Numbered from the stretch's first letter, positions 5,149-43,049 are shown. The stretch is DNA of 54,044 nt from Verrucomicrobiota bacterium (GCA_016219905.1 JACRKA010000097.1:1-54044); one strand, 5' to 3'. Notes: generated from the letters alone by a model not told the origin. A program made the numbers and translations.

Positions 5149-5313
5149 ATGATGCAAGTCGCGAGAGGGCCGCGCAGCGGGCAGACGATGACCGAGTTCC
5201 TGCTCGTGGCGATGACGTGCATCCTGTTCTTTTTCATCCTCGCGATTTTTTTGAACTCGTATCTCGAGCATTCATACCGGGTTTTGAGCCTGTTGTCGTC
5301 GCAATACCCCTGA
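5149..5313 (+). CDS. Small Flp/TadE-like prepilin
   Basis: Class III signal motif RSG|QTMTEF followed by a hydrophobic helix; 54 aa; first gene of the Tad cluster. Confidence 0.65.
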   Translation: MMQVARGPRSGQTMTEFLLVAMTCILFFFILAIFLNSYLEHSYRVLSLLSSQYP

Positions 5314-5370
5314 GGGGTGGCGGCGCGGCAGCCAGAGGAGTCATAGCGGCAGCGGTCGGCAGGAGAAACC

Positions 5371-5643
5371 ATGAGCAAGATGCGTAAACTGATGGCGAAC
5401 CGGCGGTCAGGCCAGACGATGACGGAATACATCATCATCGTCGTGATCGTTGCGGTGGCGGCGCTGATCATCTTCGGTATTTTCAGCGACACCATCCGGA
5501 CGAAACTGGCGGGCACCGTGTCAAGCATTGACAGCGGCACGCACGCCAGCGACGCCCAAAGCGAGGTGGCCACCAAGTCGGTGGACATCCTGAAGAACCT
5601 CAACGAACAAGGCATAGACAGCAGCGGTGGCAGCGGGTCGTAG
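5371..5643 (+). CDS. Flp-type major pilin (type IVc)
   Basis: RRSG|QTMTEYIIIVVIVAVAA (Flp G..EY motif); strong RBS aggagaaacc. Confidence 0.85.
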   Translation: MSKMRKLMANRRSGQTMTEYIIIVVIVAVAALIIFGIFSDTIRTKLAGTVSSIDSGTHASDAQSEVATKSVDILKNLNEQGIDSSGGSGS

Positions 5644-5700
5644 TTCGGCGCTTGTAAACGTGGCTGGCAGAGGAGGCCAGCTGCGGCCACGAGGGTCACG

Positions 5701-6267
5701 ATGCGGCGGCAACGCAACCATGCCCGCGCGCGAATGATTGCCCGACGCTCCGGGGAGAGCGGGCAGTCCATCGTGGAGTCTTGTGTCGTCATCATGGTGG
5801 TGCTGCTGGTTTTCTACGGGTTTCTTCAGGCCGCGTTGCTCTACAACCACGAGCGCGTGCTCCAGTTTGCCTCGTTCGCGTCCACGCGGTCGGCCACGGT
5901 CGGGTTCAACGAGGACGTCTATACGCGCGCCTACCGGGCCGCGTCCATCCCCGCGTCCGGCCCGATGCAGACGCCGGGGCAGAACCAGTCGCAGCCGGCG
6001 CAGCTTGGCCTGGAGACCGCCATCATCCCGTGTTACCTGAACCCGGAGAACGGCCAGGGCATTTTGCAGTATGAGTATTGGGACACCTACCGGATGGACC
6101 CGGTGATCACAGGCGGGGGCACTACGATCCAGGAGTATCACGAGCAGCAACACCCGCTGCAGATCTGGAAGGACAGCGGGTTGCTGTGGGCGTTTTATGG
6201 CCGGGACACGGTGACGATCGCCAACGACGTGTCCATGGGGCTTCACTACGAGCATTACCTGCAATGA
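5701..6267 (+). CDS. TadE-like minor pilin
   Basis: SG|QSIVES plus hydrophobic helix, then A..ASTRSATVG as in TadE N-termini. Confidence 0.8.
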   Translation: MRRQRNHARARMIARRSGESGQSIVESCVVIMVVLLVFYGFLQAALLYNHERVLQFASFASTRSATVGFNEDVYTRAYRAASIPASGPMQTPGQNQSQPAQLGLETAIIPCYLNPENGQGILQYEYWDTYRMDPVITGGGTTIQEYHEQQHPLQIWKDSGLLWAFYGRDTVTIANDVSMGLHYEHYLQ

Positions 6268-7886
6268 ACATTCTCCGTCCAACGCCCTCCGCGCCGCCCG
6301 CCTGCAACCGCCGGCGGGGCCAGACGCTGATCTTCGTGATGATGGTGCTGGCGATCCTGTCGTTCGTGATGTTCTCGGTGTATGACGTGCAGCAGGTGGC
6401 CAGCGCGCGGGTCCGGGCGCAGAACGCCTCCGACGCGGCGGCGCTGGCCGGGGCGCGCTGGCAGGTCACGACGCTCAACGCCATCGGCGAGATCAACCTG
6501 CTGAAGCTGACGACGGCGATCATTGACACGCCGCCGTCGCCGTATGCGGGGCCGGTGCCGGCTTCGCAGTGGCACTCGCTTTTTTCTGATATCAGCAACG
6601 GGTTGGATGGGTTGCAGGAGCGGCTCAGCCGGATCGGGCCGTTGCTGGGCGTGTTCTACGCGCAGCAGGCGGCGAAGCTCAACGGCATGCACGTGGTGGC
6701 GTCGTATGCGCAGCCGTTCAATGACACGATCACCTGGATCAGCACGCACGCGTCGGATTATCCGCCGTATTACCAGACGGAGTTGGTGCCGCTGCTGCAG
6801 GAGATCGTCAACCAGGGCGTGGCGGCGTTGCCGGCGGGGGCGCTGGGCAATCCCGGTTCGTTCGACCTCTCGGAAGCTTCGGGATGGGCGGGGTATTTGT
6901 TGAGCCGGCGTTTTTACGAGGCCATCGCCGCGCAGGACTGGTGTTACTTGCGGCCGGTGTTGAACGCGCCCTACACGGACGCGACCTCGTTCTGGGGCAT
7001 CGTGCGGCCGGGCGACCCGCCGGACCCGCTGCAATTCCTGCCGCTGTGGGTGATGCCGCAGTTTTTCTCGCCGGACACCGTCGAGCAGCAGCTTTCGGAC
7101 AGCGTGCCGGCGATCCAGACTCTGACCAGCCTGCGCAACCTGCAACTCAACCCGAATTTCCCGACCAACACAGGCGATACGAACTATCCGCACTTCAGCG
7201 AGCCGGTGGATCCGATCGCCTTCTACGTGCCGCTGCAACTCTTCGTCTATCGGGGGCAGTGGAGTTGGGGCGGCAACGATGACCAGGCGGAAGCGCTGTT
7301 GCTGCGCAGCCGGTTCAAGCCGCAGTTCCGCTACAAGGGCGCCGATTCGGTCTGGGCGGTGCAGGGCACGGCCAACGTGGTGATGGCCCCGGCGAACCCG
7401 GAGCAGGTTTCGTGGACTTCCGCGCACGAGCAGGAAGGCCTGCGCACGGCATTTGGCGAGCTGGCCTACCTCACCAACCGCGTCGGCAGCATCGGCTACG
7501 GCATCATGGGCAGCGCGGCGGCCAAGCCGTTCGGCCAGATTGACGAGAGCACGCCGCCCAACGGCGCGCCCGGCAGCCCGATCCCGCTGGTGCTGCCGGT
7601 GTTCGACTCGGTGCGGCTGATCCCGATCGCGTTCTCTTCGGGCACCGCGCAGTTCGACCCGTTGTGGTTCATCCATCTGCGCGACCATCTTTATCCCTAC
7701 ACGTCGCAAGGCATCGGCGCGATCTCGGGGGCCTGCCCGTATTGCGCCGACTTGATTCTCTGGGAAAGCTCCGCGTTCCGGCAGATCGGGCTGGACTGGT
7801 TTGCCGACGCCGCCAAGGACGGCCGCGACCCGTGCCCGCCCGGCGGCGGCGGCTGGAACAGCAACAACGGCATCATCGCCCACTGA
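6264..7886 (+). CDS. TadG-like large minor pilin / tip protein
   Basis: RRG|QTLIFV hydrophobic helix and the RAQNASDAAALAGA Tad motif. ATG overlaps the previous stop. Confidence 0.8.
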   Translation: MNILRPTPSAPPACNRRRGQTLIFVMMVLAILSFVMFSVYDVQQVASARVRAQNASDAAALAGARWQVTTLNAIGEINLLKLTTAIIDTPPSPYAGPVPASQWHSLFSDISNGLDGLQERLSRIGPLLGVFYAQQAAKLNGMHVVASYAQPFNDTITWISTHASDYPPYYQTELVPLLQEIVNQGVAALPAGALGNPGSFDLSEASGWAGYLLSRRFYEAIAAQDWCYLRPVLNAPYTDATSFWGIVRPGDPPDPLQFLPLWVMPQFFSPDTVEQQLSDSVPAIQTLTSLRNLQLNPNFPTNTGDTNYPHFSEPVDPIAFYVPLQLFVYRGQWSWGGNDDQAEALLLRSRFKPQFRYKGADSVWAVQGTANVVMAPANPEQVSWTSAHEQEGLRTAFGELAYLTNRVGSIGYGIMGSAAAKPFGQIDESTPPNGAPGSPIPLVLPVFDSVRLIPIAFSSGTAQFDPLWFIHLRDHLYPYTSQGIGAISGACPYCADLILWESSAFRQIGLDWFADAAKDGRDPCPPGGGGWNSNNGIIAH

Positions 7887-7897
7887 GAACCCCGGCC

Positions 7898-8500
7898 ATG
7901 AAACCCCTCTTGAAATCCCATCGGTCGCGGGCGGGCCAGGCGATGGCGGAGATGGTGCTGGCGCTGGTCGCGATGGTGGTGATCATGGTGGGCATCGTCA
8001 CGCTGGGCGAAGGCGGCTACCATCAGATCGCCTCGATGCTGGCGGCGTTGCGCGACGCCTCGACGGGCGCGATCCTCGGCGCCTCCAGCGGCGAGACCTA
8101 TCCGCTGGTGCAGGATTGGGACGCCGGCGCCGACAACCGCAACTACACGCCGGACGACCGCGCGAACTACACCAGCCAGGCCAGCCTCTACACCACCAGC
8201 CGCACGGCGCTCTCGCAGGTCGGCAACGGCCAGCCTTTCGATTATCCGAACTACAACCTCGGCATCCAGCAGTTCGACCAGCACAACCTCACCACCCAGA
8301 TCCCCAACGGCGCCGTCACCGGCGGCTGGAGCACGCCGGGCATAGACACCCGCGACCTGACCCTGGGCGGCATCGAGCGCGGGAGCGAGCGCGTGGAATT
8401 CGGCAACGCGCTGCAGCGGCTGGTCTATGACGCCGACAAGATCACCATCCGCAACGAAGTCTATTGGCCGCAATTGTCCAATCTGGACCAGGCGCCGTGA
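7898..8500 (+). CDS. TadE-like minor pilin
   Basis: RAG|QAMAEMVLALV hydrophobic helix; contains a D-x-G-x-D-x-x-x-Y-T-x-D-D loop (possible Ca2+ site). Confidence 0.75.
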   Translation: MKPLLKSHRSRAGQAMAEMVLALVAMVVIMVGIVTLGEGGYHQIASMLAALRDASTGAILGASSGETYPLVQDWDAGADNRNYTPDDRANYTSQASLYTTSRTALSQVGNGQPFDYPNYNLGIQQFDQHNLTTQIPNGAVTGGWSTPGIDTRDLTLGGIERGSERVEFGNALQRLVYDADKITIRNEVYWPQLSNLDQAP

Positions 8501-9228
8501 CGATCCGTCCGCCGGCCAATCTCCTGCTGCTGCTGCTCGCCGGGCTTGCCTTCACGATGGGCGGGCCTTACGCTGCCGCCCGCGTTTTTCTCAGCGGCGG
8601 CGACTCGCCGCTCGCTGCGGCCTCGGAAGAGGCGGGCTTCAAACAGGTGTATAAGACCGAATACAAAATCAACGGCGCCGACGCGGCGCTGGAGGTCTAT
8701 GCGGCCGACCTGCCGGCGGCCGTCGCCGCGCAACGGCTGCAGGACGCGCTGCGCGGACGCCAAATCAACGCCACCGTCACCGCCACCGAGGCGGGCGGCT
8801 CGGGCGTGCTGGCCACCAAGGATGAACTGACCCGGATGCTGTTGCAGGCGGCCAAGCCGGGCCGGACGATGCTCTACGCCGTGCGCCAGAGCACGGAGGA
8901 CGCGGCGAAGTATGCCGCCGCGCGCGCCGGCGGCGAGGTCATTGACGCAAAGCTGCCCGGCATCCCGGCGTATCCCGGCGCGCGGCTGGTGCATCACGTC
9001 GAGGACAAGAAGACGAAGACCCTTCTCGCCGTGTATAAGGGCAGCGGCGAACCGTCGCTGGTGCGGGACTACTTCGCGCAAAGCCTGCCGCCCAACGGCT
9101 GGCAGCCTGTTTTCCCCGGCGGCCCGATGTATCGGCGCGGGCCGATGAACTGCATGATCAGCGTCACCCCCAGCCAGCAGCTCGGCGAACTGACCATCAC
9201 CGTGCTCGTGCGGCACTCCTCGCTATGA
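8497..9228 (+). CDS. Exported hypothetical protein of the Tad locus
   Basis: N-terminal hydrophobic signal; GIPAYPGA motif; coupled to both neighbours by GTGA/ATGA overlaps. Confidence 0.65.
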   Translation: MTIRPPANLLLLLLAGLAFTMGGPYAAARVFLSGGDSPLAAASEEAGFKQVYKTEYKINGADAALEVYAADLPAAVAAQRLQDALRGRQINATVTATEAGGSGVLATKDELTRMLLQAAKPGRTMLYAVRQSTEDAAKYAAARAGGEVIDAKLPGIPAYPGARLVHHVEDKKTKTLLAVYKGSGEPSLVRDYFAQSLPPNGWQPVFPGGPMYRRGPMNCMISVTPSQQLGELTITVLVRHSSL

Positions 9229-10148
9229 AACAGAAAATCATCCTTCTCGTCGCGTTGCTGGCGGGCCTGGCCGCCTTCATCCTCTCCAAGCAATACATCG
9301 AGAACTTCAAGGCCGAATACCAGAAGCAGTTCAACACCATCTCGGTGATCGTGGCGGCCCGCGACCTGGTGCCCGGCACGAAAATCACGAGGGATGACAT
9401 CGGCATGAAGGATGTCTTCGCCAAGGGGATCACCGGCCGCGTGTTCAAGCCGGATGAGGCCGCGGAGCTTATTGGAAAGAAAACACTCTTCATGATCCAC
9501 AAGTTGACGCCCATCAACTGGAACGACGTGGACATGCCCTACCGGGGCTTGAGCGGCCTCTCCGGCATGATCACCCGCGGCGACCGGGCCATTGCCTTCG
9601 CCGTGGATGCCGTCTCCGCCGTCTCCGGCCACGTCAAGCCCAACGACCACGTGGACATCATCGGCACCTTCAGCTTCCCCGGCCAGGGCAAAGGCCCCAG
9701 CGGCTCCGGCCCGGCCGAGACCGTCACGCTGACCATCCTGCAGGACGTCACCATCCTGGCCACCGGCAAGAACACCGGCCGCCGCGGCTTGGAGATGGAG
9801 ATGACCGAGCGCTTCGGGGGCGAGCAATACAACAGCGTCACCGTCGCCGTCACGCCGCGCGAGGCCGAGATGCTGATCTTCGCCTCATCGAAGGGCAAGC
9901 TCGCGCTGGCCCTGCGCAACCGCGAGGACGTCTCCGTGGAGAAACAACTCGGCAACGTGGACTTCCAGCAGTTGGAGAAGAACTTCAACGTCCTCAACGC
10001 CGAGCGGCAGCAACGGCTGCACCCGCCGCTGTTCGGCCAGCCGAGCGCGCCGCCGCCGGCCGCCCTGCCTGGACCCGCTACGTTGCCATCGCCTTCGACG
10101 CCGAAGCCCGCGCCCGTGGCCGTGCCCGGCCCGCCGGCCAAACCGTGA
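9225..10148 (+). CDS. cpaB: Flp pilus assembly protein CpaB/RcpC
   Basis: SAF domain (VIVAARDLVPGTKI), RAIAFAVD.VSAVSGHVKPNDHVDII, ILQDVTILATG, LALALRN; Pro-rich tail. Confidence 0.92.
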   Translation: MKQKIILLVALLAGLAAFILSKQYIENFKAEYQKQFNTISVIVAARDLVPGTKITRDDIGMKDVFAKGITGRVFKPDEAAELIGKKTLFMIHKLTPINWNDVDMPYRGLSGLSGMITRGDRAIAFAVDAVSAVSGHVKPNDHVDIIGTFSFPGQGKGPSGSGPAETVTLTILQDVTILATGKNTGRRGLEMEMTERFGGEQYNSVTVAVTPREAEMLIFASSKGKLALALRNREDVSVEKQLGNVDFQQLEKNFNVLNAERQQRLHPPLFGQPSAPPPAALPGPATLPSPSTPKPAPVAVPGPPAKP

Positions 10149-10178
10149 CCTGCACGCCGAGACCAACCCCAGGCTGAC

Positions 10179-11882
10179 ATGCCAGACGACACTCCCCACC
10201 AACTCGACCTCGTCATCGAACTGATCGAAGACGGCCAGAAACGGATCATCCGCCAGCAGTTGACGCCGGCGGTCTATGCCATCGGCAGCGACCCCAAGAG
10301 CGCCATCTGCATTGACCACAGCGGCGTCTCGCGCAACCACGCCAGCCTCTTCTACGAGCCGAACCAGATCCTCAGCGAAGACCTCGGCAGCACCACCGGC
10401 ACCTTGGTCGAAAACGTCCGCATCAAGCGCGCCGCCCGCGTCCGCATCGGCCAGCGCGTCGGCATCGGCCCGTGCCTCATGTGGCTGGAGCCGCCGAAAC
10501 AGAAGGAAGCCGGGCCGGCGGAGGCCGGGGAACCGGAGCCGGAGAAGGACGCCCGCGTGCCGCAACGCAGGCCGACCGAGGTCATGGCCGGCGACACCTC
10601 CCGCGCCCAGGTCCGCAAGATCAAAGGCCAGATCCACTCCGAACTGCTGCGGCGGCTCGACCTGAAGCGGATGACCGTCAACAAGACCTCCGAGAAATCC
10701 CTCCAGGACAAGGTCCGCACGACGGTCCACGTGATCGTCAACGAGATCAAGAGCCAGCTTCCCTCGAACATCTCGCCCGCCCAGCTCGCGCGCGAGGTCA
10801 TCCAGGAAGCCATCGGCCTCGGCCCCCTCGACGACCTGCTGGAAGACGAGAGCGTGACCGAAATCATGGTCAACGGCTGCGACAAGATCTTTGTGGAGAA
10901 GGCAGGCAAGATCCTCTTGAGCGACCGCACGTTTGTGGACGACACGCAGGTGCTCGCCATCATCGAGCGCATCGTGGCGCCCATCGGCAAGCGCATTGAC
11001 GAAAGCTCGCCCTACGTGGACGCCCGCCTGCCCGACGGCAGCCGCGTCAACGCCATCATCGCGCCGCTCTCGCTCAAAGGCCCCACCATCACCATCCGCA
11101 AGTTCGCCCGGGTGCCGTTCACGGTGGAGGACCTGATCTCGCGGTTCAACACCATGACGCGCGAGATCTCGGAGTTCATGCGCATCTGCGTGCTGCTGCG
11201 CAAGAACATCATCATCTCCGGCGGCACCGGCTCCGGCAAGACCACGCTGCTCAACGTGCTGTCCAACTATCTGCCGAAGGACGACCGCATCGTCACCATC
11301 GAGGACACCGCCGAGTTGCGCCTCAACCAGCCGCACATCATCAGCCTCGAAGCCCGCCCGCCCAACATCGAGGGCCGCGGCGCGGTCACCATCCGCGACC
11401 TCGTCCGCAACGCGCTGCGCATGAGGCCCGACCGCATCGTCGTCGGCGAGTGCCGCGGCGGCGAAGCGCTCGACATGCTCCAGGCCATGAACACCGGCCA
11501 CGACGGCTCGCTCACGACCGTCCACGCCAACTCCCCGCGCGACACCATCAGCCGCCTGGAGACGATGGTGCTGATGGCGGGCATGGACCTGCCCAGCCGC
11601 GCCATCCGCGAGCAGATCGCGTCGGCCATTGACATCGTCTGCCACACCGACCGCCTCAGCGACGGCTCGCGCAAGATCACCAAGGTCTCCGAGGTCATCG
11701 GCATGGAGAAGGACGTGATCGTGATGCAGGACCTGTTCGTGTTCACGCAGACCGGCATCAACCCGCAGAACAAGGTGCTCGGCTACTTCACGCCGACCGG
11801 CTCGATCCCGACCTTCATCGAGGACGTCTCCACGCGCGGCCTGACGCTGGACCGCGCCGTGTTCGCGCCGCGCCTCCCATGA
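10179..11882 (+). CDS. tadA: CpaF/TadA pilus ATPase with N-terminal FHA-like domain
   Basis: Walker A GGTGSGKTT, TIEDTAEL, LRMRPDRIVVGECRG, AMNTGHDGS. N-terminal IG.....I.ID..GVSRNHA....EDLGS..GT FHA pattern. Confidence 0.95.
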   Translation: MPDDTPHQLDLVIELIEDGQKRIIRQQLTPAVYAIGSDPKSAICIDHSGVSRNHASLFYEPNQILSEDLGSTTGTLVENVRIKRAARVRIGQRVGIGPCLMWLEPPKQKEAGPAEAGEPEPEKDARVPQRRPTEVMAGDTSRAQVRKIKGQIHSELLRRLDLKRMTVNKTSEKSLQDKVRTTVHVIVNEIKSQLPSNISPAQLAREVIQEAIGLGPLDDLLEDESVTEIMVNGCDKIFVEKAGKILLSDRTFVDDTQVLAIIERIVAPIGKRIDESSPYVDARLPDGSRVNAIIAPLSLKGPTITIRKFARVPFTVEDLISRFNTMTREISEFMRICVLLRKNIIISGGTGSGKTTLLNVLSNYLPKDDRIVTIEDTAELRLNQPHIISLEARPPNIEGRGAVTIRDLVRNALRMRPDRIVVGECRGGEALDMLQAMNTGHDGSLTTVHANSPRDTISRLETMVLMAGMDLPSRAIREQIASAIDIVCHTDRLSDGSRKITKVSEVIGMEKDVIVMQDLFVFTQTGINPQNKVLGYFTPTGSIPTFIEDVSTRGLTLDRAVFAPRLP

Positions 11883-12769
11883 GCCTCCAGATCGCCAGCA
11901 ACATCTCGGCGCTGCTGTGGTTCCTGGCGGCGGGCGCCGTCGTCTGGGCCATCGGCACGTGGCTGATCGAGATGTTCAAGGGCTACCGGGAGGTCTATAT
12001 CGAGGAGACCGGGCGGCACATGGACGACATGTTCCTGTCGCTGCCGCCGGAGCAGGTGGCCAACCTCGCGCTGATTTTCGGCGTGGTGTTTTTCCTGGCG
12101 TGCTTCGGGACCATCGGCAGCTTCGAGACCACGCCGCGGTTTCTCGGGACGACGTTCTTTTCGCTGGTGATCGGCGGGCTGGGCTTCATGATCCCGCGCG
12201 CTTTTGTGCGCCGGCTGCGGTTCAATCGGCTGCTGCTGTTCAACGAGCAGCTCGTGGACGCGATGGCGACGATGAGCAACTCGCTGCGGGCCGGGTTCAG
12301 CATCCTGCAGTCGTTCGACATGGTGATAAAGGAAAACCGCCGGCCGATCAGCGAGGAGTTCGGCCTGTTCATGCACCAGCACCGCCTCGGCATGAAGTTC
12401 GAGGAGGCGATGGCCAACCTGAGCAAGCGCGTCGGCAGCCAGGACCTGGATCTGATGATCGCCGCCATCGAGACGGCGCGGCAGACCGGCGGCAACCTGA
12501 CCGAGGTGTTTGACCAGCTCGCCACCACCGTCCGCGAGCGGATGCGGGTGGAGGGCAAGATCCGGTCGCTGACGGCGCAGGGCCGGTTGCAGGCGATGGT
12601 GGTGGGGTTGATGCCGCTGGTGCTGGCGGGCGCGATGTATATGATCAGCCCGGTGATGATGCAGGGTTTTGTTTACTCCACGGCCGGCATCGTGACGATC
12701 GCGATTGCGCTCGGCATGGAGGTCATCGGTTACCTCATCATCAAGAAGATCGTGAGCATTGATGTCTGA
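11879..12769 (+). CDS. tadB: TadB inner-membrane platform protein (T2SS F family)
   Basis: QLVDAM..MSNSLRAGFS, TGGNLTEVF, RSLTAQGRL, KKIVSIDV. Confidence 0.92.
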   Translation: MSLQIASNISALLWFLAAGAVVWAIGTWLIEMFKGYREVYIEETGRHMDDMFLSLPPEQVANLALIFGVVFFLACFGTIGSFETTPRFLGTTFFSLVIGGLGFMIPRAFVRRLRFNRLLLFNEQLVDAMATMSNSLRAGFSILQSFDMVIKENRRPISEEFGLFMHQHRLGMKFEEAMANLSKRVGSQDLDLMIAAIETARQTGGNLTEVFDQLATTVRERMRVEGKIRSLTAQGRLQAMVVGLMPLVLAGAMYMISPVMMQGFVYSTAGIVTIAIALGMEVIGYLIIKKIVSIDV

Positions 12770-12785
12770 CGCGAAGGCACGCGGC

Positions 12786-13412
12786 TCAGTAGCCCATGGT
12801 CTTCAGGACCTGCTTGGCGTAGGTGAAGGATGAGATGAAGCTGGCGTAGTCGTTCTTTAACAAAGCGTCCGTGGCGTTGTAGAAGCTGATGGTCAGCGTG
12901 CGGACGGCCGTGGCGCGGGCCACCGAGGACAGGTCGCGGTAACGTTGCGTCAGGGTCTGGAGCAACACGCGGTTCTGTGTCGCGACCTGGCTGACCTGCT
13001 TGTTGCGGTTGCCGACGTTCTTGATCTGGAGCGCCGCCTCCAACTGGGTCAGGATCCGCGCGTAGTTCTTCAGGTCCTTGTTCTGGTCCTTCTTGAAGAC
13101 GAAGCGGCCGGCGAGGAACTGGAGGATCTTCTCGTCGGTGTCTATGGTGTCCAGCACGGCGAACTCGCGGGTCTTCTGGACCATGAACTCGTAGAGTTGC
13201 GGCAGGGTCTGGCGCAGGTGGTTCAGGTCCACTTGCGTCCAGGCGTAGTGCACGCTGCCATACTTGGTCCGGAAGTCGAGGCCTTCGCCGTCGGCCTTCG
13301 AGACCGTGCCCTCGAGTTCGGTGCCGTCGCGCAGCTTGATTTTGTCCGGCGTGGCGGCGGCGAGGGCCAGCGCGGCCGCCGCGAGCCAGGTGACGAAGCA
13401 GTAGGTTTTCAT
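12786..13412 (-). CDS. Exported hypothetical protein on the opposite strand between tadB and tadC
   Basis: Signal peptide MKTYCF...ALAAA; DKIKLRDGTELEGTV small beta domain followed by helices; typical coding codon bias. Confidence 0.8.
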   Translation of the reverse strand: MKTYCFVTWLAAAALALAAATPDKIKLRDGTELEGTVSKADGEGLDFRTKYGSVHYAWTQVDLNHLRQTLPQLYEFMVQKTREFAVLDTIDTDEKILQFLAGRFVFKKDQNKDLKNYARILTQLEAALQIKNVGNRNKQVSQVATQNRVLLQTLTQRYRDLSSVARATAVRTLTISFYNATDALLKNDYASFISSFTYAKQVLKTMGY

Positions 13413-13513
13413 GGGACGTTCCGGTTTTCAGACGCAGTTTACGGCAGAGACATTGAAACAAGCAACATTTGAGAGTGGGCGCCGGGGCCTGGGTCCCGGC
13501 CGCAGGGCGAACG

Positions 13514-14419
13514 ATGACACCGAATGAACTGATAGCGGCGTTGATGTGGATGATCTTCATCGGGGCCGGCGTGCTGTATGTGGGCATCGCCGGCAGCGAG
13601 GTCAAATACGTCAAGCTGGCCGACGGCCGGGAACAGGCGCGCACGCTGCCGCTGATGTTCCGGCTGCTGCTGCCGTTTGTGTCCAACGTCGCGCCGTGGT
13701 TCCGCCACAAGCGGCTGGAGCGGCATCGCGCGCGGATGGACGCGAGGCTGATCTCCGCCGGCCACGAGGGGCTGCTGAACGGCGAAGAGTTTCTCTCGAT
13801 CCAGGCGTTGATGTTCCTGGTGGCGGTGCCGATGTCCTTGGCGCTGCAACCGGCGCTGGCCAACGTGCGGTTCGTCAACCGCTACTGGTGGGCGGTGGCC
13901 TTCCTGATGGTGGCCATGAGCCTGCTGTTCCCCATGTCCTGGCTGCGCAAGACGCGCGAGCTTCGGCACCGCTCGATCCAGAAGGCCCTGCCCTACGTGC
14001 TCGACCTGATGACGCTCTCGGTCGAGGCGGGCCTCGATTTCATGACCGCGGTGCGGAAGATCATTGACCGCCGCGCGATGGACTCCTTGGGCGAGGAACT
14101 GCTGCGCGTGTTTCACGAGATCCAGGTCGGCAAGACGCGCCGGCAGGCCCTGCGCGACATGGCCACGCGCGTGGACCAGCCCGACTTGAGTTCCGTCTCG
14201 CACGCGCTGGTCCAGGCCGACGAACTCGGCGTCAGCCTCGGCACGATCCTGCGGATCATGGCCGACCAGATGAGGTCGAAACGCTTCCAGCGCGCCGAGA
14301 AACTCGCGCACGAAGCGCCGGTGAAGATGCTCGTGCCTTTGCTGCTGTTCATCTTCCCGGCGGTGATGGCCTTCCTGCTGGGGCCGATCATCGTGCAAGC
14401 CTTCAGCCGGACGTTTTAG
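13514..14419 (+). CDS. tadC: TadC inner-membrane platform protein
   Basis: LPYVLDLMTLSVEAGLDF, LVQADELGVS, AEKLAHEAPVKMLVPLLLFIFPA. Confidence 0.92.
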   Translation: MTPNELIAALMWMIFIGAGVLYVGIAGSEVKYVKLADGREQARTLPLMFRLLLPFVSNVAPWFRHKRLERHRARMDARLISAGHEGLLNGEEFLSIQALMFLVAVPMSLALQPALANVRFVNRYWWAVAFLMVAMSLLFPMSWLRKTRELRHRSIQKALPYVLDLMTLSVEAGLDFMTAVRKIIDRRAMDSLGEELLRVFHEIQVGKTRRQALRDMATRVDQPDLSSVSHALVQADELGVSLGTILRIMADQMRSKRFQRAEKLAHEAPVKMLVPLLLFIFPAVMAFLLGPIIVQAFSRTF

Positions 14420-14467
14420 GTTGATGAGTGATTGGAACTCGCTCCTCACTCGCCACGGCTCAGAACC

Positions 14468-14839
14468 ATGCTCATCCGCAACACCACCCGCGGCACCGTG
14501 ATCGCCGACCGCGCCGAGGTCGCGCGCAGCGTTGCGGCCCGCACGCGGGGGCTGATGCTGCGCCGGTTCGACGGGTTCGACGGCCTCGTCCTGGAGCCGT
14601 GCAACAGCATCCACAGGTGTTTCATGCTCATGCCGCTGGACGTGATATTCTTTGACAACCGGCGCGCAATAACGAAAATGGTGTCGGCGCTCGCGCCGTG
14701 GCGGTTGTTCTGCGGTTCCTGGCGCGCTGCCGGTGTGCTGGAACTGCCCGAGGGCGCGATCGCGCGCAGCCAGTCCCAGCCCGGCGACCAACTGGAGTTT
14801 GGCGGGCCGGCCCCGTCACGAGCGGGCACCATCGGTTGA
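14468..14839 (+). CDS. DUF192 family protein
   Basis: EVARS...RTRGLM, PCNSIH..FM..PLDVIFFD, VLELPEG, PGDQL. Confidence 0.85.
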   Translation: MLIRNTTRGTVIADRAEVARSVAARTRGLMLRRFDGFDGLVLEPCNSIHRCFMLMPLDVIFFDNRRAITKMVSALAPWRLFCGSWRAAGVLELPEGAIARSQSQPGDQLEFGGPAPSRAGTIG

Positions 14840-16242
14840 TGAAACTTCGCGTCATCCAAGGCAAACGTCGCGGCAAGGAATTCGCGATCGGCACGGAGCC
14901 GGTCCTGATCGGCCGCGACCCGTCTGCCGGCATCCTGCTCACCGAGGACCAACTGGTCTCCTCCCGCCACGCCGAGGTGGCGCAGGACGCCGACGGCCAA
15001 CTCGTGGTGCGCGACCTCGACTCGGTCAACGGCACCGAGGTCAACGGCGAGCGCATCGAGTCCGCCGGGCTGGGCGCCGGCGACGAACTGACCATCGGCA
15101 ACACCGTCTTCGAAGTCATCGAGGAAGCGGTCGCCCCGCCGTCGCCTCCGCCCTCGCGGCCCAAGCGCGAGCGCAGGGCCATCGCGCCGCTGCCAGCGAA
15201 GCGCCGGCCGCCGCCGCAGGAAGAGATCGAGGAGATCGGGACGGAGACGGCCGCGGAAGAGGAGGCGGTCGAGGAGGCCGGGGAAGCCGAGAGGAACCTG
15301 GAGTTTGGCGAGCAGGCGGAGGTCCGCGCGCGCGCGCCCGCGTCGCTGGCGCGCCGCATCCTGTCGTTGTCGCTCACGGCGCTGATCACGGTCGTCATCC
15401 TCGGCGGCGGCGTTTACATCTGGATGCAATTCCAGCAGACCAAGCCGCGGATGCTCACCGGCAGCGTGAGCAGCGCCGACCGGCTGGACCTCGCCTACGA
15501 AAAGGTCCAGGCCAGCAAGGACAACATCTTCCGCTACGCGCTGCGGATCAGCGGCAGCAAGCTGATGCTGAACATTGATGACCTCAAACAGCGCCGCCAC
15601 CTTCAGAAAGAGAAGACGCTCAAGGAAGGCCTCACCCGGGAACTGGTCGGCCAACTGGAGCGCAACAACTTCAACAACCTCAAGGCCAAATACGGGGGCC
15701 TGCCCGCCGAACAACAGGAAACCTCCGTCATCGAGTTGACGCGCGGCACCCGCTACCAGCGCGTGGAGGTGGACAACACCATCCCGCCGGACATCTTCGT
15801 CTCCGCCCAGAAGACGCTGGAGGAGTTCGCCAAGAACGAACTGGGGCTGGTCGGCGACAAACCGCGCGAGCAGCTCATCCAGGACGCCCAGGAGGCGTTC
15901 CTGGCCGCCAAACGGCTCTACGAGGCGCGCGAGGTGGAATTCCCCAACCTCTACAACTCGATCAAGGCGTTCCAGCTCGTGCAGCTCAACCTCGAGACCA
16001 TCGAGCCGAAGCCGGAGATTTACCGGCAGGCCGTCGCGCTCGAATCCGAGGCGACCGACATGCTCAAGCAGCTCGTGGACAACCTCCGCTTCAACGTGGA
16101 CAAGGCCGTCCGGCTCTCCGAGTGGACCCGCGCCCGCGAGGCCCTGCAACAGATCATGGCCCGCGTCCCGGACCGCGAGGACGACCGTTACCGCGAAGCC
16201 GAGCGGCGCCTGATTATCGTCCAGCAGCACTTGCGGCGATGA
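14839..16242 (+). CDS. Bitopic membrane protein with N-terminal FHA domain
   Basis: LIGRD...VSSRHA...RDLDSVNGT.VNG FHA, Pro/acidic linker, one TM helix, then a helical/TPR-like periplasmic part. Confidence 0.85.
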   Translation: MKLRVIQGKRRGKEFAIGTEPVLIGRDPSAGILLTEDQLVSSRHAEVAQDADGQLVVRDLDSVNGTEVNGERIESAGLGAGDELTIGNTVFEVIEEAVAPPSPPPSRPKRERRAIAPLPAKRRPPPQEEIEEIGTETAAEEEAVEEAGEAERNLEFGEQAEVRARAPASLARRILSLSLTALITVVILGGGVYIWMQFQQTKPRMLTGSVSSADRLDLAYEKVQASKDNIFRYALRISGSKLMLNIDDLKQRRHLQKEKTLKEGLTRELVGQLERNNFNNLKAKYGGLPAEQQETSVIELTRGTRYQRVEVDNTIPPDIFVSAQKTLEEFAKNELGLVGDKPREQLIQDAQEAFLAAKRLYEAREVEFPNLYNSIKAFQLVQLNLETIEPKPEIYRQAVALESEATDMLKQLVDNLRFNVDKAVRLSEWTRAREALQQIMARVPDREDDRYREAERRLIIVQQHLRR

Positions 16243-17618
16243 AAACGAACCAAGAGAAACCAGAAGTCAGAAGCCGGAAGCCCGAAGGCAAGGGCGCCTC
16301 GCGGCTCCCGGCTCTTTTGCTCTGTCTCCTGGCTTCCGTCTTCTGCCTTCTTCCCGCCGGCTGCCAGAAGAACGAAGGCGAGGTCCTCGACGTGCGCACC
16401 AACCCGGCCGGCGCCACCATCGAAGTGGACGGCCAGCGCGCCGACGGCGTCTCGCCCATGCGCCTGCGCGTCCAGCCCGGCGAACACCTCGTCGTGGCCG
16501 CCAAAGGCCCGACGGAAACGCGCGCCAGCGTGACGGTCCGGGCCGGCGTCGTCACCCCCCTCGACCTCGCGTTGCGGCCGTTGCTCGGCCTGGTGCTCAT
16601 CGAATCGTTCCCGTCCGAGTCCGAGGTGCTGCTGGATGGCGCGTCCCGCGGCAAGACGCCGCTGTTGCTGACCGATCTGCCCGGTGGCGAACATCGTTTC
16701 ACCCTGAAGCGTGACGGCTATGAGACCAAGGATGCCGTGTTGGCCATCGCCGACCGCCAGCCGAAACTGCTCTCGCTGGAGTTGAAGTCGCTGCTCACCG
16801 CCATCAAGGTCACCTCCGTGCCCGACAAGGCCAAGGTTCACCTCGACGGCTCCTTCGTCGGCGAATCGCCGCAGAGCATCCAGAACGTCCTCGCCGGCAA
16901 ACACAAGGTCCGGCTCGAACTCGAGGGCTACGAACCGTTCGAGCAGGAGGTCGAGGTCAAGGGCAAGGAGGAATACGTCGTCAACGCCACGCTCCAGGAG
17001 AAATACGCCCGCATCCGGATCGAGACCGAGCCGAAGGGGGGCGAGATTTACCTGAACAATGAGTCGCGCGGCAAGGCGCCCATCGCCCTGGAGAAACTCC
17101 ACGACGGCGAATACACGATCAAGGTCGTCATGCCGAACTACCCCGAAACGGTTCGCAAGGTGACCCTCAAGAAAGGTGAAGACTTGCAGTTGGTCATCCC
17201 GCTCGAAAGGCGCGTGGGCGTGCTCCAGGTCATCACGATTCCCGCCGGAGTGGACGTCTTCGTGGACGGCGAGAAACGCGGCACCACCATCCCCCTGCCC
17301 AACGTCCAGTATTCCTCGCCGCTGTTCATCAGCGATGTCCTGGAAGGCTCGCGCATCGTGAAACTCGTCAAGCCCGGTTTCGCGGAGGTCAACACGCGGG
17401 TGGACATCCGGCAGGGCCAGACCACCACGTTCAGCAACGTCCAGTTGCGCCGGCTGTTCATCCCCGACACCGAGATCGCCACCCGCGACGGCCGCACCTT
17501 GCGCGGCATCGTCACCCGCGTGGACGCCGACGGCACCGTCCACTTCGAGACCGCGCCCGGCATCTTCGTGGACATCCCGGGCGACAACATCGCCTCCCGG
17601 AAACCGATCTCGAAATAG
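16239..17618 (+). CDS. PEGA repeat lipoprotein
   Basis: Lipobox-like LPAGC; about five PEGA repeats (S/T-x-P-x-x-A-x-V-x-LDG...G.TP...G.H....GY). Confidence 0.88.
   Translation: MKTNQEKPEVRSRKPEGKGASRLPALLLCLLASVFCLLPAGCQKNEGEVLDVRTNPAGATIEVDGQRADGVSPMRLRVQPGEHLVVAAKGPTETRASVTVRAGVVTPLDLALRPLLGLVLIESFPSESEVLLDGASRGKTPLLLTDLPGGEHRFTLKRDGYETKDAVLAIADRQPKLLSLELKSLLTAIKVTSVPDKAKVHLDGSFVGESPQSIQNVLAGKHKVRLELEGYEPFEQEVEVKGKEEYVVNATLQEKYARIRIETEPKGGEIYLNNESRGKAPIALEKLHDGEYTIKVVMPNYPETVRKVTLKKGEDLQLVIPLERRVGVLQVITIPAGVDVFVDGEKRGTTIPLPNVQYSSPLFISDVLEGSRIVKLVKPGFAEVNTRVDIRQGQTTTFSNVQLRRLFIPDTEIATRDGRTLRGIVTRVDADGTVHFETAPGIFVDIPGDNIASRKPISK
16261..16351. repeat. Heptamer repeat array and its inverted partner inside the signal-peptide coding region
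   Basis: cagaagt cagaagc cggaagc ccgaagg ... tctgtct cctggct tccgtct tctgcct. Confidence 0.6.
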
Positions 17619-40643: not shown

Positions 40644-43049
40644 ATGAAAACCGGCAAGGGCAAAAAGGGGTGGGTGTTGGCCGCGGTCATCGTCGCCGCC
40701 GCGTGCGTGGCCTTTGGTGTCTGGAAATCGGGGCGATGGCAAAACACGCCAGCAAACAACCGCACGGTCACGGCCGCGCCGGCAGACGCCGGGTTCACCG
40801 GCTCGCGCACTTGCCGTGATTGCCACGAGAAGTTCTACAAGCTCTGGTCCACGTCGCATCACGGTCTGGCGATGCAGCCGTTCACGGCCGAGCTGGCGCG
40901 CAAGGAGTTGCAGCCGCAGAAGGAGGACCTGGTCATCCGCGGCGTGCGCTACCGGGCCGTCATCGAGGGCGGCCAGAACCACGTGCTCGAACGCGGGCCG
41001 CAGGGCGAGCGGAAGTATTCCATCGTCCACGTCATGGGCGGCAAGAACGTCTATTATTTCCTCGGCCCGCTCGACCGCGGCCGGCTGCAGGTGTTGCCGG
41101 TCGCCTACGACGTGCGCCGCAAGCAATGGTATGACACCACCGCCAGCGCGATGCGCCACTTCCACGAGAACCCCGACGAGGCGCTCGACTGGCGCGAACG
41201 GCCGTTGACGTTCAACACGAGCTGCTTCAACTGCCACGTCAGCCAGCTCGAGAAGAACTACAACCCGCACAGCGACAGCTACCACACGACGTGGATCGAG
41301 CCGGGCATCAACTGCGAGACCTGCCACGGCCCCTGCGGCGAGCACGTCAAGCTCTTCAAACAGCTCGGCCCCGCCGGCGCCGAGCACCCGCCGAAGGACG
41401 TGAAGCTCATCAAGATGACGACGATGGCGCCCGTGCCGCGCAGCGACACCTGCGCGCCGTGCCACGCGAAGATGGTGCCGCTGACCACGACCTTCCAGCC
41501 GGGCGACCGTTACTTCGACCACTTCGACCTCGGCGCGCTGGAGGACCGGGACTTTTATCCCGACGGGCGCGACCTCGGCGAGAACTACACGTTCACGCTC
41601 TGGAAACTCAACCCGTGCGCCAAGAACGGGAAGTTCGACTGCGTCCACTGCCACACCTCCAGCGGGCGCGACCGGTTCGCCGGCGAGAAGGCCAACAACG
41701 CCTGCCTGCCGTGCCACAAGACCCACGTCGAGAACCCCGCCGCGCACTCCCACCACGCGGCCGGCAGCGAGGGCGGCAAATGCGTCGCCTGCCACATGCC
41801 GATGACCGAGTTCGCCCGGATGCGGCGCAGCGACCACTCGATGCGCGCGCCCGCGCCGGCCGCCACGCTCGCGTTCAAGTCGCCCAACGCCTGCAACCTC
41901 TGCCACGCCGACAAGGACGCTGCGTGGGCCGACGGCTTCGTCCGCAAATGGTATCCGCGCGATTACCAGGCGCCCATCATCCGCCTCGGCCGGCTCGTGG
42001 ACGCCGCCCGCAAACGCGACTGGTCGAAGCTGCCGGAGATCCTCGACTACATCGCCAACAAGGACCGCGAGGAGGTTTACGCCGGGTCGCTGGTCCGGCT
42101 GCTGGAATTCTGCGACAACGAGGCGAAGTGGCCGGCGATCGTCAAGGCGCTCAAGAACGACCCGTCGCCGTGGATCCGCGCGCGGGCCGCCGAGGCGTTG
42201 CAGAGCCGGCTCGATTCCGACACCGTCCCGGCGCTGGTGGCCGCCACGCGCGACGACACCCGGCTCGTGCGCATCCGCGCCGCGTCGTCGCTGGCGAGCT
42301 ATCCGGCCGACTACCTCGAACCCGCCGACCGCGAGAGCGTCAAGCGCGCCGCGGCGGAGTTCGAGGCGCACCTGAAGTCGCGCCCTGACGACGGCGCGTC
42401 GTTCTACAACCTCGGCAACTTCCACATGGCCCGGCGCGAGTATGAGCAGGCGATCGCCTGCTTCGAGACGGCGAACAAGCTGCAAGCCGACTTGTTCGCG
42501 GCGCACGTCAACGCCGCGCTGGCCTACAACGCCGCCGGGCGCAACGACAAGGCCGAGGCGGCGCTGCGGCAGGCCATCAAGCTCGACGCGACCAACGCGG
42601 TGGCCAACCTCAACCTCGGCCTGTTGCTCGGCGAACTGGGCCGGGCGCGCGAGGCGGAGGGCGCGTTCCGCACGGCGCTGAAGAGCGAGCCGCGCAACGC
42701 GGTGGCCGCCTACAATCTCGCGGTCATCGCGGGCCAGGACGGCCGCGTGGACGAGGCAATCACGCTGTGCGGCAAGGCCGCCGAGGCCGCGCCGCAGGAG
42801 CCGAAATACGCTTACACGCTCGCGTTCTACCAGCGCCAGAAAGGCCTGACCAACGACGCGGTCCGGACGTTGCGCCGGCTGCTGGCGGGCCGGCCCGCCT
42901 ACGGCGCCGCCTACGCGCTGCTCGGCGAGATTTGCGAGCAGCAGGGCGACCGCAGCGGCGCGGCAGAGGTGTATCGGCAGGCGGCGGAGAACCGGCGGCT
43001 CTCCGAACAGGAGCGGGCGCAGTTCGCGCAGCGGCTGCAGTCGTTCTAG
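40644..43049 (+). CDS. Octaheme c-type cytochrome with HEAT and TPR domains
   Basis: N-terminal TM; 8 CxxCH motifs (CRDCH, CFNCH, CETCH, CAPCH, CVHCH, CLPCH, CVACH, CNLCH); HEAT repeats, then TPRs. Confidence 0.9.
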   Translation: MKTGKGKKGWVLAAVIVAAACVAFGVWKSGRWQNTPANNRTVTAAPADAGFTGSRTCRDCHEKFYKLWSTSHHGLAMQPFTAELARKELQPQKEDLVIRGVRYRAVIEGGQNHVLERGPQGERKYSIVHVMGGKNVYYFLGPLDRGRLQVLPVAYDVRRKQWYDTTASAMRHFHENPDEALDWRERPLTFNTSCFNCHVSQLEKNYNPHSDSYHTTWIEPGINCETCHGPCGEHVKLFKQLGPAGAEHPPKDVKLIKMTTMAPVPRSDTCAPCHAKMVPLTTTFQPGDRYFDHFDLGALEDRDFYPDGRDLGENYTFTLWKLNPCAKNGKFDCVHCHTSSGRDRFAGEKANNACLPCHKTHVENPAAHSHHAAGSEGGKCVACHMPMTEFARMRRSDHSMRAPAPAATLAFKSPNACNLCHADKDAAWADGFVRKWYPRDYQAPIIRLGRLVDAARKRDWSKLPEILDYIANKDREEVYAGSLVRLLEFCDNEAKWPAIVKALKNDPSPWIRARAAEALQSRLDSDTVPALVAATRDDTRLVRIRAASSLASYPADYLEPADRESVKRAAAEFEAHLKSRPDDGASFYNLGNFHMARREYEQAIACFETANKLQADLFAAHVNAALAYNAAGRNDKAEAALRQAIKLDATNAVANLNLGLLLGELGRAREAEGAFRTALKSEPRNAVAAYNLAVIAGQDGRVDEAITLCGKAAEAAPQEPKYAYTLAFYQRQKGLTNDAVRTLRRLLAGRPAYGAAYALLGEICEQQGDRSGAAEVYRQAAENRRLSEQERAQFAQRLQSF

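Follow-up and report, generated by a model that had tools for sequence, protein, structure and literature searches.

An FHA-type Tad locus of Verrucomicrobiota with a conserved FHA-TM/PEGA pair and no secretin gene alongside

We analysed a 54,044-nucleotide stretch of DNA from a Verrucomicrobiota bacterium (GCA_016219905.1 JACRKA010000097.1:1-54044; the whole stretch is called the window below) and found a Tad-type pilus cluster of 13 plus-strand genes and 1 minus-strand gene at positions 5149-17618. The locus is a variant, found in the Planctomycetota-Verrucomicrobiota-Chlamydiota (PVC) group of bacteria, of the FHA-type (Kil-like, class III CpaF) Tad machine. Its motor ATPase is fused to an FHA domain, and its platform genes are followed by genes for a bitopic FHA protein with one transmembrane (TM) segment, here called FHA-TM, and for a PEGA-repeat lipoprotein. 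We consider it rather probable that the locus encodes a Tad-type pilus which belongs to the FHA-Tad class, is gated by signals and serves for attachment or contact. Such a pilus would depend on an A24 peptidase encoded elsewhere in the genome, would carry an envelope module made of FHA-TM and the PEGA lipoprotein, and would use an outer-membrane exit that is not encoded alongside. FHA-Tad systems and Kil were already known; in the literature searched we came across neither the PVC variant, with its wide distribution and its consistent absence of a Tad-type secretin, nor the FHA-TM/PEGA pair. By title and abstract, no paper in that literature dealt with this Verrucomicrobiota Tad system or tied a DUF192 or PEGA domain to pili, and none of the top matches listed concerned a "Tad pilus" in PVC bacteria.

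Gene content of the locus

The window holds a Flp-type prepilin site, TadA/CpaF together with TadB and TadC, CpaB/RcpC and minor pilins of TadE/TadG type, which are the parts by which a Tad system is recognised. The genes of the cluster are as follows:

5149..5313 (+), Flp-like prepilin 1, 54 aa; the open reading frame (ORF) opens at TTG 5077 and the start is ATG 5149; N-terminus RSGQTMTEF, site G/QTMTEF, then a hydrophobic helix
5371..5643 (+), Flp-type prepilin 2, 90 aa; G/QTMTEY motif; Flp_Fap E 6e-4, 20 bits (cut-off of 32.2 not reached)
5701..6267 (+), TadE-like minor pilin, 188 aa; G/QSIVES; PF07811 TadE E 6e-4, 20.3 bits (cut-off of 22.9 not reached)
6264..7886 (+), TadG-like large minor pilin, 540 aa; G/QTLIF; PF13400 Tad E 7.9e-11; ATGA overlap with the gene before
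7898..8500 (+), prepilin-like protein, 200 aa; N-terminus RAGQAMAEMV (G/QAMAEM) and hydrophobic helix; TadE/F-like from the N-terminus alone
8464..9228 (+), exported two-domain alpha/beta protein, 254 aa; no Pfam or NCBIfam family
9225..10148 (+), CpaB/RcpC, 307 aa, with a Pro-rich C-terminal tail; RcpC 1.7e-26, SAF 3.1e-7, TIGR03177 6.7e-50
10179..11882 (+), FHA-fused TadA/CpaF motor ATPase, 567 aa; FHA residues 33-97 (2.3e-14), T2SSE 213-488 (1.8e-62)
11879..12769 (+), TadB platform protein, 296 aa; T2SSF 4e-17; ATGA overlap with tadA
12786..13412 (-), exported signal-peptide protein, 208 aa, between tadB and tadC; G+C content at third codon positions (GC3) 0.93
13514..14419 (+), TadC platform protein, 301 aa; T2SSF 7.4e-16; start placed where orthologue alignments begin
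14468..14839 (+), DUF192 protein, 123 aa; PF02643 1.8e-16
14839..16242 (+), bitopic FHA-TM protein, 467 aa; FHA 3.2e-14, Yop-YscD_cpl 3.1e-15, one TM segment
16239..17618 (+), PEGA-repeat lipoprotein, 459 aa; PEGA 4.5e-65 in 5 stretches; signal peptide and lipobox-like LLPAGC

An earlier reading made from the sequence alone (the sequence-only reading) had listed five prepilin-like genes, an exported unknown protein, CpaB, FHA-TadA, TadB, TadC, DUF192, an FHA protein and a PEGA protein here, and the ORFs, their GC3 and the Pfam matches bear out that list and its positions; it had overlooked the minus-strand gene for the 208-aa protein. All 14 frames are intact and the GC3 of the chosen frames is 0.71-0.94. 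Five of the 11 same-strand junctions overlap (ATGA or TGATG) and 1 more possibly does, the remainder being gaps of 11-57 nt, so the statement that the genes are mostly linked by overlapping stop and start codons was right about the overlaps and generous in its "mostly".

The domains identify the hexameric-type TadA motor, CpaB and the TadB/TadC platform as the core of the machine, and the 2 Flp-like proteins and the 3 minor pilins as parts of the filament. The match of FHA-TadA to the Caulobacter CpaF structure 9e24 had an E value of 3.2e-121, and alignments to CpaF structures begin at residue 106-150. Both Flp-like genes and 2 of the 3 minor pilins were assigned from sub-threshold matches or N-terminal motifs alone. 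Flp-like prepilin 1 had no Pfam match and the 200-aa prepilin-like protein no Pfam or NCBIfam match; the former has an orthologue in 9/9 loci of the same family and the position of the latter is conserved in PVC loci. Flp-type prepilin 2 is conserved in same-family loci and in other PVC loci, and most PVC loci gave matches to a local hidden Markov model (HMM) of the TadE-like minor pilin.

The minus-strand gene divides the locus into two transcription units, and a scan for promoters and terminators did no better than chance (1 found where 1.3 were expected, and 11 where 9.0 were). The 208-aa protein had no Pfam or NCBIfam match; its best ESM Atlas score was 0.78, with Verrucomicrobiota clusters only, which is a lead, and a weak pairwise similarity (E 0.009) links its N-terminus to the C-terminus of the PEGA lipoprotein. 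The gene lies between tadB and tadC in 9/9 same-family loci and in 0/22 more distant PVC loci. Its insertion point is where other PVC genomes split the cluster, tadC standing with FHA-TM and PEGA in loci L277 and L278.

The locus is flanked by housekeeping genes, namely queA and a RibD_C gene upstream and SDR, TPR-zincin and aroC genes downstream. The metagenome-assembled genome (MAG) comprises 4.88 Mb in 393 contigs and is 89% complete, and the best matches of its TadA are Verrucomicrobiae/Verrucomicrobiia first, with Kiritimatiellia and Lentisphaerae after them. Elsewhere in the window (40644-43049) there is a gene, unrelated to the pilus locus, for an 801-aa protein in which multihaem cytochrome c motifs (Cytochrome_C554/C7) are combined with HEAT repeats and numerous TPR repeats.

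Conservation of the locus and the FHA-TM/PEGA pair

All 14 genes, the minus-strand one included, were collinear in 8/9 same-family loci from three genera, the ninth ending at a contig edge. These collinear orthologues are 33-93% identical and the ATPase core is 86% identical to the copy in the sister genus, while the housekeeping flanks were not conserved among these loci.

Beyond the family, we found a TadA match at E <= 1e-120 in 187/401 sampled Verrucomicrobiota genomes, a number which is an upper bound because the unfused TadA of a second Tad locus in the window's own genome (contig C196) also scores 1.5e-144. Among the 150 rows listed, 129 align from residue 35 or earlier and so include the FHA domain; the remaining 21 start at residues 104-146, although their open frames span 445-728 aa. 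Most families of the class to which the window belongs had no such match (0/26, 0/35, 0/31); in other classes it was frequent (43/65, 10/10, 17/18, 24/24, 6/6). The periplasmic part of FHA-TM (15439-16242 in the window) is a more specific marker. It was single-copy in 153/401 genomes, 1.7-2.1 Mb ones among them, and followed the same family pattern as the ATPase (10/10 in family f32, 16/18 in f37 and 6/6 in f39, against 0/26, 0/35 and 0/31 where the ATPase was absent), with no match in any listed family that lacked an ATPase match. In total, the module is conserved over about 40 families.

The FHA, PEGA and DUF192 genes are conserved neighbours in same-family loci and in PVC loci of other classes. 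With the ATPase also standing outside the canonical non-FHA TadAs (see below), neither of the two sequence-level outcomes named by the sequence-only reading as refuting it was observed. Using local HMMs built from same-family orthologues, we found in 20 loci from 20 other-class families that FHA-TM and PEGA follow tadC in 10, and that DUF192 is present in 7 and the 254-aa protein in 11. FHA-TM was unlinked from tadA in many families, showing that the system is frequently split over two loci (in about half of PVC families), and even then it stood directly before a PEGA gene in 9/9 other-class loci; DUF192 was adjacent in 3 of these 9, and tadC accompanied the pair in 2. In own-class family f10 (two genomes) FHA-TM is unlinked with DUF192 before it, and no PEGA gene was detected there. 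In PVC, gamma/betaproteobacterial and Myxococcota loci alike, DUF192 adjoins tad genes or the FHA-TM gene, so that its association with Tad recurs in several phyla; examples directly after tadC or beside FHA-TM, in addition to PVC loci, are L141:13327-13686, L144:13320-13667, L138:6018-6371, L164:13454-13783 and L134:598-2382. The DUF192 protein itself matches just two uncharacterised PDB entries.

The structural model of FHA-TM (predicted local distance difference test score, pLDDT, 81, from a 16-row alignment) consists of an FHA domain (residues 1-95), a disordered stretch (98-167), a TM helix (170-200), a Mago-like domain (214-340) and a helical domain (343-466). Residues 1-95 resemble GarA/OdhI and, more distantly, YscD, and residues 214-340 superpose on the Mago fold 1hl6_B (Z 14.8, root-mean-square deviation (rmsd) 2.6, 121 aligned). 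The helical C-terminal domain found a structural match only at Z about 10, which is below what is meaningful for helical folds, and Foldseek matches to the FHA-TM model were all to the FHA domain. In the ESM Atlas, the C-terminal part of FHA-TM scored 0.94, in Verrucomicrobiota clusters only.

Complex structure prediction, which the sequence-only reading had suggested as a check, was run for this pair. The model of PEGA residues 43-459 with FHA-TM residues 205-467 reached an ipSAE of 0.74 against 0.00 for the best control, a level attained by 116/157 solved complexes and 2/215 mismatched pairs, these benchmark counts being approximate for our complex since our own alignments were used. The runs share >=84% of contacts and the pLDDT of the partner is >=82. 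The predicted interface joins FHA-TM 215-308 to PEGA 64-177, i.e. the Mago-like domain to the first two PEGA domains, and includes the conserved strand region YEKV..NIFRYAL (FHA-TM 215-250). The model thus supports binding of the FHA-TM periplasmic domain to the PEGA lipoprotein.

The 254-aa protein encoded before cpaB was modelled with a pLDDT of 83 as two alpha/beta domains, of which the C-terminal one (160-254) resembles PA1624 (6td9_B: Z 10.7, rmsd 2.2, 94 aligned), DcrB (Z 8.1) and BamC (Z 7.0); Foldseek returned nothing for this protein at E <= 0.001. From this predicted fold it is probably a periplasmic accessory protein and not a channel.

FHA domains bind phosphothreonine through residues at the R-S-H-N positions. 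FHA-TM of the window keeps the canonical FHA residues (IGR, S..H and NG), with the G and R invariant in 16/16 orthologues. The FHA of the window ATPase reads S-S-H-T at the R-S-H-N positions, the Arg being lost, and all four residues were found in only 6/25 PVC ATPase rows against 11/23 alignable rows from other phyla, those 11 being Myxococcota or Myxococcota-clade rows. Since the phosphate-binding Arg is lost in same-family ATPases, the ATPase FHA is more probably a phospho-independent docking domain; in the family of the window, FHA-TM would then be the phospho-reader and the motor FHA a docking domain. Pkinase genes adjoin the cluster in 3/22 PVC loci and a SpoIIE phosphatase gene in 1/22, a cross-phylum locus (L204) holds a kinase, a PP2C phosphatase and a double-FHA protein, and in the genome of the window there are 26 matches to Pkinase and 12 to FHA.

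The missing secretin and a proposed mode of action

We scanned 43 ORFs of the window (14 in the locus and 29 others) and found no secretin (PF00263), no ParA/TadZ-like gene (ParA/CbiA/AAA_31; a genome-wide search for TadZ was not made) and no A24 peptidase (Peptidase_A24). The absence of the RcpA secretin had been remarked on in the sequence-only reading, correctly, although it was not recognised there as the main peculiarity of the locus. Genome-wide there are 3 secretin genes (contigs C72, C196 and C300), 7 T2SSE ATPase matches and a single A24 peptidase gene, on contig C386 and unlinked to the locus. The same genome has a second Tad locus, of canonical type (C196:7486-15918), which encodes a TadE-like protein, three tandem 64-aa Flp proteins, CpaB, a 142-aa protein, a 578-aa secretin, an unfused 432-aa TadA, TadB and TadC. 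Its secretin is the only one of the genome to bear PF13629, the Tad-type secretin N domain. This second locus is preceded by a response-regulator-like gene.

From gene content, conservation, co-occurrence, clade structure and predicted folds we infer the following as to assembly, binding partners, regulation and purpose of the FHA-Tad machine. The pilins would be processed by the single unlinked A24 peptidase; as a precedent, PilD is reported to process Flp1 in Bdellovibrio (preprint 10.64898/2026.07.08.737194). The bitopic FHA-TM, docked to the PEGA lipoprotein, would form an envelope-spanning accessory module which may couple the machine to Ser/Thr-kinase signalling or position it, while the ATPase FHA more probably serves for docking independently of phosphorylation. 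The system would most likely be used for regulated attachment to, or contact with, surfaces or other cells. Given that no outer-membrane conduit is encoded with it, the machine either borrows another secretin or works without one.

Several observations weigh against this reading. There was no secretin, A24 peptidase or ParA-like protein among 123 ORFs flanking 22 distant PVC loci either, and PF13629 was found in only 35/401 genomes of the phylum; when the same genome sample was cross-tabulated by hand, 131/153 FHA-TM-positive genomes had no PF13629 match and 22 had one. As a result, a surface pilus of a diderm would here be without its usual exit. It should be noted that the 22 positive carriers mostly have >=2 TadA matches, i.e. 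a second Tad locus, and that the PF13629 marker is imperfect, not blind: it detected 11/17 TadA-adjacent secretins, a sensitivity which limits the absence of secretins together with the 89% completeness of the MAG. The degenerate ATPase FHA weakens a simple model of a phospho-switch on the motor. The likeness to Kil (see below) was drawn from the published gene order and domains of M. xanthus and from sequences of other Myxococcota. Adhesion as the purpose is suggested solely by analogy with Tad pili elsewhere, and as to pilus, expression and phenotype the system is known here from its genes alone. The locus is present in two DNA libraries (X1 and X2; groundwater, one study, possibly its source), and contigs of the RNA libraries (X6 and X20) contained no transcript of this organism, only short pieces which, being only 90-95% alike and lying mostly over the conserved ATPase core, come from relatives.

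This silence in the RNA libraries would suit a decaying or inactive Tad remnant that has lost its secretin, TadZ and peptidase, as would the missing canonical parts themselves and the degenerate phosphothreonine-binding residues of the ATPase FHA. Such decay is hard to reconcile with 14 intact frames of high GC3, with collinear orthologues across three genera, with an ATPase core so similar to that of the sister genus and with a module retained over about 40 families, and we regard it as very improbable.

A more serious alternative is a secretin-independent envelope machine, in which the FHA-TM/PEGA module has replaced the secretin (and TadZ) and the filament acts as a periplasmic piston or endopilus, or follows an undescribed outer-membrane route. 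In 12 FHA-TadA loci of other lineages (Myxococcota, Gamma- and Betaproteobacteria, Acidithiobacillus, one Lentisphaeraceae MAG and one uncultured bacterium) a secretin gene lies exactly between cpaB and tadA, as it does in the further Myxococcota loci L243 and L246, whereas cpaB directly adjoins tadA in the window (gap of 30 nt) and in 22 PVC loci. The scarcity of PF13629 among marker-positive genomes points the same way, as does the FHA-TM/PEGA pair, which is invariant and predicted to bind. In addition, apparently 3 type IV filament (T4F) systems stand against 2 secretins in each of two small genomes of 2.1 and 3.4 Mb (98% and 92% complete), the three being an apparent type IVa pilus cluster, a further GspE/PilB-type ATPase and the FHA-Tad system. 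On the other side, all 10/10 PVC genomes checked hold >=2 secretins of other, larger types that could be shared, PEGA repeats are beta-sandwiches and not a membrane barrel, and the same type of FHA-TM coexists with a secretin in Myxococcota (locus L249, the secretin being confirmed in its sister L246). We know of no precedent for a Tad envelope machine without a secretin, and hold this alternative to be unlikely.

A bolder version, doubtful to about the same degree, is a widespread, Kil-related and secretin-free Tad machine in which FHA-TM clamped onto the PEGA lipoprotein makes a new kind of scaffold across the envelope; on kinase signalling or contact, this scaffold would gate a filament that acts within or across the envelope, possibly against neighbouring cells. 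The PVC branch poses a concrete puzzle: a diderm Tad machine consistently without a Tad-type secretin and with an FHA-TM/PEGA pair, predicted to bind, instead. An answer would reveal how Ser/Thr phosphorylation controls type IV filament machines and how these can be rebuilt at the outer membrane.

ATPase phylogeny and comparison with known Tad systems

ATPase trees were built from 360 core columns. In a quick tree of 142 rows, seven near-duplicate same-family loci being left out, the PVC rows were monophyletic (SH-aLRT 92). A careful tree of 80 rows representing each group (LG+C20 with posterior mean site frequencies, PMSF; bootstrap not fully settled) gave a PVC FHA clade (95/92), a proteobacterial FHA clade (99/98) and a Myxococcota clade with one Phycisphaerales (97/93). 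The window ATPase did not group with canonical non-FHA TadAs, and the genome's own C196 TadA fell in a weak non-FHA group (87/79) apart from the PVC FHA clade; M. xanthus KilF and the canonical Caulobacter and Aggregatibacter sequences are not among the rows of these trees. Relations among the three FHA clades and the ParA-fused clades were unresolved. Holding the three FHA clades together cost almost no likelihood (delta lnL 0.03; approximately unbiased (AU) test, p-AU 0.508 against the free tree), so that a single origin of the three is not rejected by these alignments, and the suggestion in the sequence-only reading of an independently evolved Tad system is not favoured. FHA-TadA of Lentisphaeraceae type (L210 and L204) was placed elsewhere in the tree, indicating that the FHA fusion or its loss happened more than once. 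Most Myxococcota FHA-Tad loci (L243-L254, e.g. L251:14918-16057) also have a second, shorter TadA-like ATPase of about 375 aa a few genes downstream, and these second ATPases form a separate clade (100/100 for 5/6 such rows).

Compared with the canonical Tad/Cpa systems of Aggregatibacter and Caulobacter, the locus shares the Flp motif, TadE/TadG-like pilins, CpaB, TadA/CpaF, TadB and TadC. It differs in that its ATPase is FHA-fused and in that it is without the RcpA/CpaC secretin, TadZ/CpaE, TadV/CpaA and TadD.

The window ATPase has the architecture of class III CpaF, i.e. an N-terminal FHA domain, a linker and then the CpaF region. This class, FHA followed by an intrinsically disordered region (IDR) and CpaF, is mostly betaproteobacterial, e.g. 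in Achromobacter (PMC12019362). FHA-fused CpaF among the matches listed came from Acidithiobacillus ferrianus, Thauera, Castellaniella, Quisquiliibacterium, Alcaligenaceae, Chromatiales, Oleiphilus and a Spirochaetaceae MAG. Class III loci have the same domain order, their proteobacterial FHA clade can be placed with the PVC clade at no cost in likelihood, and DUF192 follows tadC in 4 of them; unlike the PVC locus they keep the secretin between cpaB and tadA and a small TPR (TadD-like) gene, and are without the FHA-TM/PEGA pair. In gammaproteobacterial FHA-Tad loci, CpaB is extended or followed by beta-flower/DUF3659 repeats (L141:7035-8510, L136:6356-8284, L138:299-991).

Bdellovibrio-type loci likewise have a Tad core with FHA/TPR and PP2C regulators nearby (L150), and a shared PilD peptidase is reported for them in the preprint cited above (10.64898/2026.07.08.737194). 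In contrast to the PVC locus, their ATPase carries an N-terminal ParA/CbiA (TadZ-like) domain in place of FHA (5 Bdellovibrionota-type rows; 11 ParA-fused rows in all). These loci also contain a BON-domain secretin, and their tadB is followed by an RHS-repeat gene. The ParA/CbiA-TadA fusions (L158:9248-11470, L150:9164-11314, L147, L156, L160, L139, L165, L178, L186, L189 and L199) occur in Bdellovibrio sp. HCB288, Oligoflexia, Omnitrophota, WOR-3 and Elusimicrobia, and are a third N-terminal architecture beside the plain and FHA-fused ones.

The closest architectural parallel is Kil. Its genes are MXAN_3102-3108 and MXAN_4648-4661, with an FHA-fused KilF, further FHA proteins and split clusters (PMC8460266), just as the sequence-only reading had stated. 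Cluster 1 holds an FHA protein, KilA, KilC (BON, pilus N domain, secretin), KilF and KilD (FHA+TPR), and cluster 2 runs FHA+TPR, FHA/PrgH-like (MXAN_4649), KilH, KilG, KilB, two unknowns, KilK, KilL, TadG-like, KilM and zinc-finger (PMC8460266 Supplementary file 1). The likeness that had been proposed is upheld by gene order: pilins, TadG-like protein, unknown, CpaB, two platform genes and FHA membrane protein mirror MXAN_4661-4648, so that the gene order in the window is that of cluster 2 except for the ATPase, which stands after cpaB. Shared features include the FHA-fused TadA-type ATPase, the TadG-like protein with minor pilins, unknown gene(s) before cpaB (the MXAN_4653/4654 position), an extra FHA protein after two platform genes (the MXAN_4649 position, FHA/PrgH-like), no TadZ among the genes listed and, in about half of PVC families, a split over two loci. 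DnaJ-type CxxCxGxG zinc-finger genes beside pilin genes in two PVC loci (L097:3728-4858 and L107:16822-18048) recall MXAN_4661, a "putative zinc-finger".

Profile comparison of the PVC FHA-TM with the FHA protein directly after the platform gene(s) in the Myxococcota locus L249 gave an hhalign probability of 98.7 (E 2.2e-16) over the FHA and the C-terminal helical domain, the L249 protein being FHA-linker-TM-helical without a Mago-like domain. By this measure, the PVC FHA-TM is homologous to the Myxococcota FHA-IDR-TM protein at the same locus position. The 254-aa family matched the pre-cpaB protein of another Myxococcota locus weakly (probability 90.8, E 1.2e-6). Within the 151 Myxococcota genomes surveyed, none of the 16 loci inspected had the exact layout of Kil cluster 1. 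The best 80 of at least 607 stretches in a cross-genome ATPase search included Myxococcota MAGs and a Bdellovibrio, with no Myxococcus, and the few named ones among the 24 matches to the Myxococcota FHA-TM protein included no Myxococcus.

The sequence-only reading had gone on to propose contact-dependent killing, and a Kil-like prey-killing machine would fit the architecture and the split of the cluster which about half of PVC families share with Kil. In some FHA-type or related loci (L158, L150 and L145), tad genes also have RHS or pesticin-like lysozyme genes beside them. In the locus of the window we found neither a toxin, lysin or RHS gene nor a KilC-like secretin or KilD-like protein (no FHA+TPR ORF was found in the window; such proteins occur in the Myxococcota and Oligoflexia loci L134, L246 and L150), and the PVC ATPase clade is separate from the Myxococcota clade, a separation that concerns the ATPase only, in a tree without M. 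xanthus. Moreover, the system occurs in at least 38% of sampled Verrucomicrobiota genomes (>=153/401), 1.7-2.1 Mb ones included, and FHA-CpaF is found in Acidithiobacillus, Thauera, Castellaniella and other genera, which to our knowledge are not predators. Killing is therefore unsupported as a function and, in our judgement, improbable. According to the Kil paper, Kil-like systems are restricted to predatory delta-proteobacteria and the core proteins of the Kil group fall in a Myxococcales/Bdellovibrionales/Bradymonadales clade (PMC8460266 and its Figure 7).

As side observations, RHS-repeat proteins are encoded directly after tadB in Bdellovibrio and Oligoflexia (L158:12379-14031 and L150:12231-14051), and a pesticin-like lysozyme-domain protein lies inside the FHA-Tad locus of Acidithiobacillus ferrianus (L145:12584-13864). 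These could be cargo or cell-wall enzymes, and the window has none.

Set against Kil as a whole, the PVC locus is without the KilC-type secretin, the KilA peptidase and the KilD-like protein, adds the PEGA lipoprotein and DUF192, has its ATPase with the platform genes, carries an ATPase FHA without the conserved Arg and belongs to Verrucomicrobiota. The Kil-type design principle (FHA motor, FHA membrane protein after the platform genes, often split loci) is nevertheless common in Verrucomicrobiota and its FHA motors occur in several proteobacterial lineages, which suggests that the FHA-Tad class is broad and old, with Kil as its one studied member.

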